Assembly (NCBI GenBank): GCA_965248195.1
Contig: CBDFIQ010000002.1
Span: 576,001-640,000 of the forward strand
DNA: 64,000 nt
From: Longimicrobiales bacterium
GTDB taxonomy: Bacteria > Gemmatimonadota > Gemmatimonadetes > Longimicrobiales > Gaopeijiaceae
Direction: 5' to 3'
Under the pieces are notes generated by a model that was not told the origin of the DNA, ran no database searches, and saw nothing but the letters and a program-made list of their open reading frames with translations. Shown here piece by piece: positions 18,160 to 26,026 of the stretch (position 1 is its first letter; each line of letters begins with the position of its first letter). The position numbers were made by a program, and so were the translations under genes.

Positions 18160-18274
18160 TTTTCTCCGTCAGGGGGGAGCGTCGCGAGAGATACTCGATG
18201 GGTGTCCACCATACAGGAAATGAACACGTTCGGCACGTTGCCACCCAGTGAGGGTCACTGGCGTGCGGGTCCTT

Positions 18275-18306
18275 ACACTTGGTGGCCCTAACACTTGCTG
18301 GCCCTA
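18275..18306. repeat. 16-bp tandem direct repeat upstream of the TPR gene
   Basis: acacttggtggcccta / acacttgctggcccta (15/16 identical). Confidence 0.85.
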
Positions 18307-18597
18307 TTCCGGCGGGGTGAGGTCTCCAAAAAATTGGCAGGAGGGCGGCAGGAAGGCGCGGACAGTCGATCGGCGGCAAACCTCCGCCGCACAGTAGTTC
18401 TGACTCAAGAGCCCCCCCCAGGGTCATCAAAGCCAAGGCACCTGCCCGCACGTACCCTAAGTTCCAGTCTAGGCCCGCCGATACGATCGCGCAAGAGTTG
18501 GACAATACTAGCTTGTATGTCCCGATTCGTGAAATCGGGGGATCACATATTTCTGGGCGTCTTCCCCCCCGAGGGGTGGACTGCTTAGATTGGAAAC

Positions 18598-19977
18598 ATG
18601 ACACAGCAATTACATCTCTACTCCCACGATCCGATTCGGAGCCGCCTGGCACCGAAACTGGCGACCCTCATGCAGGAGGCGGGAGCCGCGAGCACCGGCC
18701 TGGTTTGGTCGTCCGGGGAGAATAGTGGAGTGCTTCACCCCTACCTGATGATTTGTGCCGAGGCAGAAGACGGATGTGGGTTCGAGAGCGTCCCGAAGGA
18801 ATTCATCGGGAGCAGCCGAAGGGAATCCGTGGTGGGACGGCTCCGCAGTGGCCAAACGAGGGCCAACACCTGGGCAGGTATCTTCCTGGCCGAGCGCCAC
18901 GGCCGATCCTGGTTCCTCGTCCTCCAAGGGGATCAGCGTTTGGAGGTCGGCAGGAGCTTGGGCCGTGCGGCGGAGATCGCCGCTTGGGTGGCGACGTGGG
19001 CGATCGGGCGCATCGAAGGCGCCGAGCCGACTACACACCTTTCCGTGATGGAGCTGATTGCCGAGGGTGAAGCCACGGAGGACGCCTCCGACTTCGAGGC
19101 GGCGATCACGCTGTATGGCCAAGCCCACGAGGCCGCTCTTTCCACCGCGAATGAGGCTTCGGCGCTCCGCACGGCCCGCTTCTTGGGTAGAGCGCTTCGC
19201 AAGCTGGGTCGATGGGACCAAGCCGTGGCTTGGTATGAGCAGACTCGTGATACGGCTCTTGCGCTCGGGAGGCTCGATGCCGCGGCCCACGTGGCCATCG
19301 GCCTGGCAAACGTCAGGCGGCACAAGGGTGCGATCCCAGCGGCCGAGGCTCTCTTCCGCTCGGCGATCGAGGAGGGAACCCAGTCCGGAGCCCGGCAGGC
19401 GGTCGCGCAGGGTTATTTCGGGCTCATGTTGATCCACCGCGATTCCGAAGCTTGGACGGAGGCCGCTCAAGCCGGATGGCGCGCCTTCACGGAAGCGCGT
19501 GGATTCTACGACGAGTGGGATATTCTCCATGCCCTCGGTGACTGCTTCCGCAGGCTGGGAAGATCGGAGGAGGCCTGGTGCTGCAACCTCATCACGATGA
19601 AGGGCTCGCCGCTTACCGAGACCCGACACCAGGCGGCCCAGAACCTCGCCGTGATGGCCGCCCTCGGAGGAGACGAAGCTTCCTTCGACTATTTTTCGTC
19701 CAAAGTCGACCTCACCGAAGTATCGGTGATGGGGCAAGGACAGATTCTCTTTGAGCGGGGTCAAGCCCTACTCGCCCTCGATCGCCCGGAGGGGCATGCG
19801 GCTCTGGAGGCAGCTCTCCGTTACGCCGAGGAGTTGAGGCTCGGTAAGCTCGTGTTCGACATTGAGGCGGCTCTCGAACTCGAGAGGCCCTGGGAGCCCT
19901 TGCTGGGCCCGACCCCCCTTGTTCGCGATACCGAAGAAGAAGAGATCCGGACCCAGCTCGAGCTGCTCGCTACCTGA
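18598..19977 (+). CDS. Tetratricopeptide-repeat protein with unknown N-terminal domain
   Basis: Several helical TPR-like units (LGRALRKLGRWDQAVAWY, LANVRRHKGAIPAAEALF, LGDCFRRLGRSEEA); no signal peptide. Confidence 0.8.
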   Translation: MTQQLHLYSHDPIRSRLAPKLATLMQEAGAASTGLVWSSGENSGVLHPYLMICAEAEDGCGFESVPKEFIGSSRRESVVGRLRSGQTRANTWAGIFLAERHGRSWFLVLQGDQRLEVGRSLGRAAEIAAWVATWAIGRIEGAEPTTHLSVMELIAEGEATEDASDFEAAITLYGQAHEAALSTANEASALRTARFLGRALRKLGRWDQAVAWYEQTRDTALALGRLDAAAHVAIGLANVRRHKGAIPAAEALFRSAIEEGTQSGARQAVAQGYFGLMLIHRDSEAWTEAAQAGWRAFTEARGFYDEWDILHALGDCFRRLGRSEEAWCCNLITMKGSPLTETRHQAAQNLAVMAALGGDEASFDYFSSKVDLTEVSVMGQGQILFERGQALLALDRPEGHAALEAALRYAEELRLGKLVFDIEAALELERPWEPLLGPTPLVRDTEEEEIRTQLELLAT

Positions 19978-19990
19978 GCTTAACCTACCG

Positions 19991-20116
19991 TCAATCGCAG
20001 TAGCTGTTCGGGTCCACCACGCCGTCGCAATTCGCCAAATCCGTCGGTGAACCCCCACATGCCGTCATGATTCCCGTGATCGCCAGGAACACCCACATCG
20101 TCACCAGCTTTCTCAT
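19991..20116 (-). CDS. 41-aa small lipoprotein/peptide, absent from the ORF track: MRKLVTMWVFLAITGIMTACGGSPTDLANCDGVVDPNSYCD
   Basis: Translated by hand. GAGGAGG RBS 6 nt before ATG; MRK + hydrophobic stretch + lipobox MTA-C; AT-rich segment upstream (about 20190-20227). Confidence 0.8.
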   Translation of the reverse strand: MRKLVTMWVFLAITGIMTACGGSPTDLANCDGVVDPNSYCD

Positions 20117-20223
20117 CCTGTGCCTCCTCTGAACCGAGCCAAGGGGCGGACATGGGGAAGCCATGACGCCCCCGCACAGGAATCAAGCTGGTAATGTACA
20201 AAAACACAATAATTAGTTTTATT

Positions 20224-21099
20224 TTAGTTCGTCTCTTCTCCCGTTTGCGGTTGCGATACCCGTGACAGAAAGGGGTCGATACTCAAGCCCCGGTCGTCGA
20301 GCCCGACTTCATCGGCACTCTCCGGGGCGTATCCCACGGCCCGCTTATAAGCCAGCCAGGCGATCTCGTCGTCGTAACGCACCAGCCGGAGTTGCCTGAG
20401 TTGCCGGATCGCGTCCTCGGTGATGGATATCCAACCTTGATTCGGGTAACGGTCACAGAACTCCTGATCATTCTTCCACTCCTCCGCGAACGCGATCAGC
20501 CCCTCGACCAGGGCGGGAAGCTCGCCCTCGTTCGTGGCCGCAGCCGTTCGCCGCTGGTCGTGGAGCTCCAGGAAACGCTCGATCTTGCCTTCGGTCGAGG
20601 CGTTCGGGCCGCGGGTCGGCCATCGGCCTTGGCGGTACTGCCGAACCGTCTCATGGTTCAGGTCGCAGATCCGCTCAACCTCCAGATCGCTGTATTCGGA
20701 AATTGCGGAGAGGAACCGGCGCCGTAGTGACTCGGGGTCGTGGGGAGCCGCCGGTCGACCTGGGCCGCCCGGCTGTGGTTCCCGGAGAATCCGTCGGATG
20801 GCGGAAAGCTGCCGTTCGTCTTCGTCAGGCGAGCCCCTAGGTCCGCCGGGATCCTCCTCGAAAAAGCTCGCCGGCGACGCCCGAAAGGCGCGGCATACGG
20901 CATCGACGTAAGCGATCGGGACTTTTTTGGTTCGTCCCTCCTCATACCCGCGCACGGCGGCGGGGGACACTTGAAATCCGGCGTCGCTCACCCGCTTGGC
21001 AAAATCATCCCACCCCAGTCTCGATCCAGAACGGAGCTCCCGTAGGATTTTTTGCACTCTCCGTTCTGAAGAATTTGGCCCACCCATGTCCGCCCCCAT
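20224..21099 (-). CDS. XRE-family helix-turn-helix regulator, apparently with two HTH domains
   Basis: N-terminal LRELR..GWDDFAKRV...VSPAAVRGYEEG..VP; second HTH-like segment SDLEVERICDLNHETVRQYRQG. Confidence 0.7.
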   Translation of the reverse strand: MGADMGGPNSSERRVQKILRELRSGSRLGWDDFAKRVSDAGFQVSPAAVRGYEEGRTKKVPIAYVDAVCRAFRASPASFFEEDPGGPRGSPDEDERQLSAIRRILREPQPGGPGRPAAPHDPESLRRRFLSAISEYSDLEVERICDLNHETVRQYRQGRWPTRGPNASTEGKIERFLELHDQRRTAAATNEGELPALVEGLIAFAEEWKNDQEFCDRYPNQGWISITEDAIRQLRQLRLVRYDDEIAWLAYKRAVGYAPESADEVGLDDRGLSIDPFLSRVSQPQTGEETN

Positions 21100-21113
21100 T
21101 TCCCCCGCGACCC

Positions 21114-24724: not shown

Positions 24725-26026
24725 GTGCGCGATGCGCCCGACGTTTCGCCGTGTACGAGTCAGCCCTCAGTCACACCCACCCCGGCCGCCCACGGCGCCG
24801 AACGGTGGGCCCGTCACGTCTGTGTCATCGACGGCATGTTCTGCGAGGATCCCGAGGGCTCGGTCCAGTTCCACGAGGCCATCCATCTCACGGCCTCCGA
24901 CTGGGAGCAGCTACAGCAGACCGTTCGACACCGCGTGCTCCGTTACTTGCACCGCCACGCCTTGCTCGAACGCCACGTCACCGATGACATGCTCAGCTGG
25001 CAAGCGTCCGGTGGGTTCAGCATCGATGCCTCGGTCCACATCGCGGCCCGTGACCGTGCTGGGCTCGAACGACTCCTGCGCTACTGTGCCCGTCCTCCCT
25101 TCGCACTCGAACGGATCGAGGCTACCGGGTACGGTCTGCCTGGAGGCGAGCGCATCGTCTACCGCGTCCCCAATCCCGCGCCGGGCGGCGGCACCGCTCT
25201 CTCGCTCACCCCCCTCGAGTTCCTCGAGCGGCTCGCTCTGCTCATTCACCCGCCACGCATCCATCGCCACCGCTATCACGGGGTGCTGGCTCCCAATGCA
25301 AAGCTCAGGTATCAGGTCATCGCGTTCGGGCGTGAGCAGGATAATGTAGAGGAGCCGCCTCTAGGGCAGCTCGACGCTCAGTGCGTCGCGGGTTTGTCTG
25401 ACGGAGCCAGCCCAGGCCGCCGTACTTCCTCGAGATGGGCCGCCCTTATCGCTCGCATCTATGATGTCCTCCCGCTCGTGTGCCCCTCGTGCGGCGGATC
25501 CATGAGTATCATCGCCTTCGTCACCGATCCAACGCCCGTCCGCTCCATCCTCATCTGCCTCGATCTTCCCAGTCGGCCTCCTCTCCTGACTCCCGCCCGC
25601 GGCCCACCCCAGACCGAGCTCGGATTGAGCTCCGGTCGCCTTCGGCAATCCTCGCTCGTCTCGGCGGTGGGCGTCGCCTCAGCGGTTAACATTTCGGCGC
25701 CTCGGCTCGATCAGTCTTCCGGATTCGATCCCACTGATCCGCAGCCCCTTCCCGACCACGCTTCGCGCGGTCCCCTCGAGTTCGATCAGTCCGTACCCGA
25801 CTGAGATATAGCCCGACGGACCACGGACCCGCCCTCCCCGACTCGGGGGTCGGGTCCGTTCAGCTTCTCTTGCCCATCCACGCATCCGCTCGTCCGATCT
25901 TGCATGGGCGAACGGTGAGAGTGCACCTCGGGCTGGGCACGGCCTCGCAAGGGTAGGTCCCTGGGTGCCTCGGCTCGCTCAAGGAGCGTGCCGAACTTGG
26001 ACAAGGGCCTTTGAAACGCCTATCCC
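24725..26026 (+). mobile_element. IS91/ISCR-like rolling-circle transposon remnant (5'-truncated transposase to 25804, plus oriIS-like end)
   Basis: HVCVIDG, GFSIDA, LERLLRYCARPP, EFLERL, RYHGVLAPNA, WAALIARIY..PLVCPSCGGSM..IAF, PARGPP motifs; GCCTTTGAAACGCCTATCCC at 26007-26026. Confidence 0.8.
25824..25870 (+). terminator. GC-rich hairpin after the transposase stop
   Basis: cggacccg-ccctcccc..gggggt-cgggtccg followed by a T-rich tract (ttcagcttctctt). Confidence 0.5.

Follow-up and report, generated by a model that had tools for sequence, protein, structure and literature searches.

A TPR gene, a convergent micro-lipoprotein gene and an XRE-type regulator gene as a candidate Rap-Phr-like cassette in Gemmatimonadota

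Results

Three linked genes as a candidate peptide signalling cassette

The 64,000-nt stretch of contig CBDFIQ010000002.1 analysed here (positions 576,001 to 640,000; Longimicrobiales bacterium, assembly GCA_965248195.1), called the window below, contains a gene for a protein with tetratricopeptide repeats (TPRs), a convergent gene for a micro-lipoprotein and a gene for an XRE-type regulator. We propose that the three genes, which are inherited together, form a circuit resembling Rap-Phr, in which the TPR protein reads the tail of an exported lipopeptide and controls the XRE regulator, and we lean slightly towards this view. A wider claim, to which we give a little less than even chances, is that Gemmatimonadota run a phylum-wide peptide communication of their own: lipid-tethered, disulfide-looped or tandem-repeat precursors would be read by an intracellular TPR receptor, the output regulator could be swapped (AraC-type to XRE-type in one lineage), and several signal types could then coexist in one genome. 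A first-pass annotation had placed three open reading frames (ORFs) between mobA and an SDR gene, and the ORF positions and the Pfam matches of the flanking genes (PF12804 on one side, PF00106 on the other) agree with it.

TPR homologs are consistently flanked by a convergent micro-lipoprotein gene

A family profile made from 82 TPR homologs found matches of E 1e-20 or better in 151 of the phylum's 301 genomes. The loci examined comprised 30 returned matches, 80 of 120 further listed matches (54 more were unlisted) and loci from other scans; two locus scans used a closer alignment, as the broad one was too diverse. Duplicates were removed, six loci with less than 300 nt downstream were dropped (L015, L077, L169, L172, L021, L022), and L063 was left out because its genome is unpublished. 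Micro-lipoprotein genes were called by a fixed rule: 25-100 aa, an early Lys or Arg, a hydrophobic stretch and a lipobox Cys, at -60 to +300 nt of the TPR stop.

A convergent gene of this kind was found at 121 of the 128 loci with a profile score of at least 200, the window being one of the 128. At lower scores the share fell to 18 of 28 (120-200) and 3 of 10 (below 120). In an earlier pass, 99 of 105 loci had a convergent micro-lipoprotein gene and none (0/105) had one on the same strand. As a control, the rule was applied to a random sample of the host genome's 2247 ORFs of at least 350 aa, and 3 of 599 satisfied it. The expectation that TPR homologs would be consistently flanked by a small secreted ORF thus holds, and the difference from the control excludes chance as the origin of the grouping. 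Named relatives with TPR proteins 54-84% identical to the window's come from Longimicrobiales or Gemmatimonadota genomes.

One further TPR-peptide pairing was noticed at L021:202-2142, where a 70-aa lipoprotein gene precedes, on the same strand, a gene for a TPR protein with an HD-type domain (PF13487). The host genome also contains two more TPR genes that match the family profile weakly (C2:3227881-3231695, scores 90-93).

The peptide gene changes like a coding sequence and its core is repeated in two relatives

The peptide frame is open in 10 of 10 homologs compared, all length differences are whole codons, and changes relative to these homologs fall on codon positions 1, 2 and 3 in the numbers 85, 91 and 161. 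With the frame kept and third positions changing most, as in coding DNA, the peptide ORF is more than a chance frame, and its conservation, on which the first-pass annotation depended, is borne out. It is preceded by the ribosome-binding site (RBS) GAGGAGG.

The precursor consists of a signal peptide (residues 1-19), a lipobox M-T-A-C ending at Cys20, a short Pro-containing stalk and a loop between Cys30 and Cys40 that holds D-P-N-S. Among 16 aligned peptides of XRE-type cassettes, M1, A19, C20 and P36 are invariant and N37 is kept in at least 90%. The Ala19-Cys20 lipobox, present in 16 of 16, points, as judged from sequence, to signal peptidase II rather than I; the host genome has genes for Lgt and signal peptidase II, as well as for two solute-binding proteins of family 5. 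Stalk and core are joined by a linker of variable length, and the core follows the consensus [DST]-P-N-[SG], mostly enclosed by two cysteines. Two relatives lack the Cys pair and repeat the core instead, as D-P-N-G five times (L161) or L-D-P-N-[SG] three times (L170). Since the core is repeated in relatives, it may be regarded as the working unit of the peptide. Duplicated pheromones within one propeptide are known for Phr (PMC11343458; here and below, papers are cited for the part of their text that was available). Across the whole family the tails are hypervariable: 31 of 142 peptides carry tandem repeats, 28 of them with period 7, and 67 of 142 have a C-terminal Cys pair.

Genome G626 has two nearly identical tandem peptide genes (L204:494-839), each with its own RBS. 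Two AraC-type cassettes are possibly signal-less copies, one with a 29-aa peptide that stops at the stalk (L045, genome G034) and one that has no peptide by the fixed rule (L226, genome G618). A peptide profile search of genomes G001, G004, G005, G006 and G009, run without a positive control, gave no match.

The TPR protein is a candidate receptor whose predicted groove co-varies modestly with the peptide tail

The TPR protein matches PF13424 (E 1.7e-9). Its structure model (mean predicted local distance difference test 92.6) shows an alpha/beta N-terminal domain with four strands (residues ~1-138), followed by 7-8 TPRs (~150-426). A Pfam scan detected no helix-turn-helix (HTH) domain, as had been noted before, and no signal peptide is evident. 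The N-terminal part has no Pfam match; residues 1-142 lie nearest to GAF clusters by features (score 0.93), which we treat as a lead only. Rap proteins carry an N-terminal three-helix effector bundle. Such a bundle is absent from the window's TPR protein, in which residues 1-138 are alpha/beta and nearest to GAF-like clusters.

Fold comparison, which the first-pass annotation had suggested against Rap and NprR, did retrieve them: phi105 Rap (Z 20.7; root-mean-square deviation 4.0 over 272 aligned residues), pLS20 Rap (Z 19.1; 4.1 over 264), RapH (Z 18.0) and NprR (Z 16.6), with Rap proteins overall at Z 17-20.7. However, all of these are outranked by APPBP2 (Z 23.0) and by domain III of MalT (Z 22.8), the top Foldseek match is LGN, and in the sequence profile search pLS20 Rap (E 4.9e-8) stands below the generic TPR proteins LGN and OGT. 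What the model shows is thus a predicted superhelix, a type of fold frequently used for peptide binding; it does not show that the protein descends from Rap.

Whether receptor and tail diverge together was assessed on pairs of loci, each locus being used once, by partial correlation allowing for overall divergence. Groove positions were positions 2, 5, 6, 9, 12 and 13 of helix A, 42 in total, according to the TPR register. Groove divergence tracked tail divergence (partial r 0.33, p 0.014, 56 pairs), and 3 of 1000 random position sets did as well. With 55 pairs and three definitions of the tail, r was 0.29, 0.40 and 0.39 for the groove, compared to 0.10 when the stalk took the place of the tail and 0.16 when the signal peptide did. 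Correlations of other helix faces with the tail lay between -0.21 and 0.24. Over 30 re-pairings the mean for the groove was 0.34 (0.17-0.51), and the other faces ranged from -0.08 to 0.10. The predicted co-variation of pocket and peptide C-terminus is thus seen, if at a modest level and with negative values for repeats 1 and 7, and it lends modest support to the tail as the ligand of the TPR protein. Arg201, at a predicted groove position, is invariant in this set. Co-folding of TPR residues 140-459 with peptide residues 12-41, run without controls, scored 0.02 against a mark of 0.32, a value that has no bearing on binding either way.

The XRE-type regulator is a minority partner found in one family

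The regulator comprises an XRE HTH domain (residues ~12-82), an HTH-like helical domain (120-188) and a C-terminal helical domain (192-280). Its earlier description as a double-HTH protein stands for the first domain, which matches PF13560 (E 5.4e-6; 27.1 bits at a cut-off of 27) and XRE folds (residues 5-84, Z 9.4-9.8). The second domain has HTH-like helix spacing in the model and some HTH clusters nearby by features, but we found no Pfam or PDB match for it, a profile match to domain 1 of just 1.65% and one weak PHROG match (E 0.19); the fold search with the regulator was filled by matches to domain 1. Among divergent members, conservation is as high in domains 2 and 3 as in domain 1, or higher: a paralog is identical to the window's protein at 0.24, 0.46 and 0.36 of positions in domains 1, 2 and 3. 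The regulator of genome G606 (L194:8007-8633) lacks domain 1 and keeps domains 2-3, and proteins of 207-208 aa recur among the relatives. Domains 2 and 3 may therefore hold the contact to the TPR protein or a shared DNA-binding function.

The regulator next to the gene pair was recorded at the 121 strong loci where the downstream sequence ran to 1100 nt or more, AraC identity being taken from PF12833. A divergent AraC-type gene was present in 102, an XRE-type gene in 11, an upstream AraC gene in 4 and no regulator in 4. Of the order's 401 genomes, 7 were found to have an XRE-type regulator of the cassette; these 7 belong to one family, and 14 distinct loci carry TPR, peptide and XRE genes in the window's layout; in G626 the XRE gene, the two tandem peptide genes and the TPR gene are spread over two contigs that overlap by 114 nt. 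The XRE protein as partner of TPR and peptide is hence fixed within its subfamily, but it is the exception in the family at large. The AraC-type cassette of Gemmatimonadota shares a homologous TPR protein and the convergent micro-lipoprotein with the window. It differs in its divergent AraC gene, where the window has an XRE gene on the peptide's strand, and the window is further set apart by a receptor shorter than the ~600-aa form of its family and by the P-N core in a Cys loop. An AraC-type partner of this family was not found in the host genome (best score 42).

In a quick tree of 60 TPR domains, all 13 XRE-type sequences fall on one side of a branch (SH-aLRT 93), and, with the root assumed, this branch sits inside the long AraC-type receptors of the same family (SH-aLRT 89). 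Because the XRE-type TPR proteins group on one branch that is surrounded by AraC-type relatives, an AraC-type gene was likely replaced by the XRE gene on a single occasion, within one family.

The same XRE-PAS gene and response-regulator genes lie near the cassette in L033 (12629-13360) and L161 (5746-6462).

A second cassette and repeated losses

The host genome holds a paralogous TPR gene (C2:1959968-1961413; 28% identity to the window's TPR protein), and an IS256 element starts 8 nt after its stop. A second XRE gene (39% identity over residues 121-286) and a second peptide gene with a P-S-S core lie at C2:1539330-1540464, adjoining another IS256 copy at C2:1539309; the genome contains at least 40 near-identical copies of this element. 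The 8 bases beside the two IS256 ends are reverse complements of each other and make up one target-site duplication. Since the IS256-flanked halves (L032, L185, L193) share it, the second TPR, peptide and XRE genes once formed a contiguous cassette, which was likely split ~420 kb apart by recombination between IS256 copies. The host genome thus holds a second XRE-type cassette with a different peptide tail.

Three other genomes of the genus show remnants. In G009 (L231) the first codons of the XRE gene are joined to the upstream block and everything between is gone, a clean deletion; in G001 (L182) just the first third of the XRE gene is left beside mobA, a partial deletion; and in G006 (L033) an IS5 element sits at the TPR stop, the TPR gene persists, and neither peptide nor XRE gene was found. 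We read these as three independent losses of the cassette and as evidence of its loss as a unit.

Proposed mechanism and alternative explanations

In the circuit that we propose, the precursor would leave the cytoplasm through Sec and receive a lipid at Cys20, and cleavage by signal peptidase II would give a 22-residue lipopeptide, whose Cys30 and Cys40 would close a disulfide loop in the periplasm. A protease would release the D-P-N-S core from the stalk, and the core would leave the cell, accumulate and re-enter via an ATP-binding cassette (ABC) importer for peptides. Bound in the TPR groove, it would alter the hold of the TPR protein on the XRE regulator. This step has a precedent in pLS20: there Rco is bound by Rap and set free by the peptide (Phr*pLS20 freeing RcopLS20 from RappLS20; PMC7430634). 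The regulator would act on the peptide promoter and on distant genes, and the GAF-like domain could contact the regulator or add a second input.

Several points weigh against such a circuit. Seven strong loci have no peptide gene by our rule (L024, L032, L033, L036, L043, L126, L226), two of them explained by insertion sequences, and the loci are kin picked by score, making the counts descriptive rather than independent trials. The fold match is not specific to Rap, as APPBP2 and MalT domain III outrank it. The co-variation is modest, is one of 20 cells tested, and uses groove positions assigned by the TPR register rather than from model coordinates; taken by repeat, values are above zero in repeats 2-6 but below it in repeats 1 and 7, and one control cell, the core of helix A against the signal peptide, reached r 0.30 (p 0.028). 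The lipid anchor retains the peptide on the producing cell unless it is cut, and a two-membrane envelope must be crossed twice. We saw no dedicated protease, exporter or importer gene as a fixed neighbour of the cassette, and no target regulon was identified.

The main rival, which we regard as unlikely, though worth serious thought, is that the cassette serves self-monitoring: the tail would be freed in the periplasm and retaken by the same cell, reporting the status of envelope proteases or of export or acting as a timer, and nothing would be exchanged between cells. All linkage and co-variation results fit this explanation equally, the lipid anchor favours retention, and no outer-membrane exporter is linked to the cassette. 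On the other hand, hypervariable tails, repeat expansion, two tails in one genome and repeated loss are traits that, going by RRNPP biology, would be expected of kin-specific public signals.

It is quite improbable that the cleaved signal peptide is the signal, as for cCF10, and the tail a by-product. There is a precedent of lipoprotein-derived pheromones read by an RRNPP receptor (PMC7117660), and close relatives show good conservation of the hydrophobic stretch. Yet repeats occur in the tail, whose core is retained even by distant members, and groove divergence tracks the tail, while the correlation with the signal peptide (r 0.16-0.19) is not significant.

We give very little credence to the idea that the small gene encodes the precursor of a modified natural-product peptide, with its enzymes elsewhere and the TPR protein and regulator just controlling it. 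The repeat peptide of L007 does match the precursor model TigB (NF047709) of ribosomally synthesised and post-translationally modified peptides (E 0.0058), but with 16.6 bits it stays far short of the 70-bit cut-off, TigB does not match the peptide of the window, and no modifying enzyme or maturase was seen as a fixed neighbour.

Hardly any weight goes, finally, to the view that the genes are grouped by accident or serve a mobile element in toxin-antitoxin function, exclusion or defence: XRE-type cassettes do occur at several unrelated sites, adjoining different genes in different genomes, and are often lost, but chance is excluded by the counts given above, PADLOC has no family for any of the three proteins, no relatives of the cassette were matched in viral contigs, plasmids or phages, the TPR protein has no catalytic domain, and in G006 the TPR gene persists with an IS5 at its stop, although neither peptide nor XRE gene was found there.

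Relation to known peptide signalling systems

TPR-receptor peptide signalling is on record from Bacillota and from the mobile elements that they carry (PMC10075063, PMC12700828). Of the five features in the RRNPP signature of PMC10075063, three hold plainly in the window: a propeptide of 10-100 aa (41 aa), a receptor of ~250-500 aa with TPRs (459 aa, PF13424, 7-8 repeats), and adjacency of the two (13 nt between the stop codons; also in 121 of 128 homologs). Two others do not, as a lipobox takes the place of Sec export with signal peptidase I (the strict level) and the host belongs to Gemmatimonadota instead of Bacillota or their phages and plasmids. For re-import of the matured peptide and its binding in the TPR groove, the co-variation and the two family-5 binding proteins of the genome offer some indirect backing. 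The analogy to RRNPP drawn in the first-pass annotation thus survives for propeptide size, receptor size and adjacency, but membership does not: because of the lipobox precursor, the non-Rap, GAF-like N-terminal domain and the diderm host, we do not file the cassette as RRNPP, and it likely works like Rap-Phr while standing outside that group.

The closest parallel is RappLS20-Phr*pLS20-RcopLS20 of B. subtilis plasmid pLS20 (PMC7430634; PDB 6t3h, 6t46), which shares the HTH-less TPR protein with a similar fold, the small exported propeptide next to it (44 aa) and a separate HTH regulator. In contrast to pLS20, the window has a lipobox precursor with a Cys loop, convergent genes, an alpha/beta GAF-like domain in place of Rap's helical one, a diderm host and a chromosomal location with no conjugation genes seen nearby; moreover, the pLS20 interactions were measured, whereas those of the window are inferred. 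The Rap-Phr systems of phi3T and phi105 (PMC11343458; PDB 8rte), which include the best Rap fold match, also carry several signal copies per propeptide, but their targets are sporulation and competence regulators of Bacillota, whereas the partner in the window's family is XRE- or AraC-type. Enterococcal cCF10-PrgX (PMC7117660) resembles our proposal in its lipoprotein-derived signal and intracellular receptor. There, however, the signal is the final seven residues in the signal peptide of a large, unlinked lipoprotein and the receptor itself binds DNA, while the window's precursor is tiny, linked and variable in its tail.

NCBIfam has no family for any of the three proteins. A literature search found no paper on this cassette; supplements (e.g. 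the RRNPP_detector tables, with possible stray members) and most subscription papers fell outside its coverage, and the available text of PMC12700828 does not mention Gemmatimonadota or Gram-negative hosts. The cassette is real, conserved and apparently undescribed in print. The window contributes the XRE-type branch with its P-N core, together with another signal type in this genome and evidence that the cassette is lost as a whole. If the proposal is true, a diderm version would need a route by which the peptide, made as a lipoprotein precursor, could leave a cell with two membranes and enter it again. More than 100 natural receptor-peptide pairs with short, synthesisable cores make specificity directly testable, and in the XRE form this pair would be connected to a regulator of an unrelated type. 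The XRE form may also provide an outgroup for rooting the RRNPP receptors, a question named as open in PMC12700828.

Locus layout and neighbouring features

The coordinates of the cassette and its associated features are given in Table 1.

Table 1. Features of the candidate cassette, in window coordinates.
Feature	Position	Strand	Basis
Conserved non-coding block upstream of TPR gene	18358-18452		8-locus alignment
TPR gene (receptor candidate)	18598-19977	+	459 aa; Pfam TPR matches, structure model, family profile
Peptide gene (micro-lipoprotein precursor)	19991-20116	-	41 aa; translation, conservation, codon-position bias, RBS
Cys30-Cys40 loop, predicted mature signal, core D-P-N-S	19997-20029	-	Core kept while linker length varies
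107-nt AT-rich spacer, putative promoter/operator region of peptide gene	20117-20223	-	Conserved AT-rich block and RBS in XRE-type loci
XRE-type regulator gene	20224-21099	-	291 aa; Pfam, fold search, helix spacing in model

The spacer is likely the peptide gene's own promoter and operator region, to judge from its conservation; a match to the sigma-70 consensus was not found in it. The SDR gene stops 14 nt ahead of the XRE regulator start (21100-21113), and a block upstream of the XRE regulator in L034, L035, L161 and L174 is missing in the window. Given this short gap and the missing block, the window's XRE copy may be transcribed together with the SDR gene. Two RNA-labelled runs had small shares (0.10 and 0.06), and contigs of relatives cover parts of all three genes; strand and level are unreadable from these contigs, DNA was possibly present, and we draw no conclusion on expression.

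The block upstream of the TPR gene aligns in 8 loci with 84% mean column identity, non-triplet indels and inverted ends, and it travels with the cassette at different sites in the genus. A compensatory change was seen in 1 of 34 predicted pairs, folding z-scores ranged from -1.85 to +0.22, and Rfam gave no match above chance. The block may be an operator array or a structured RNA. The window also contains a 359-aa ORF (24725-25804), which by its sequence looks like an IS91- or transposase-type remnant.

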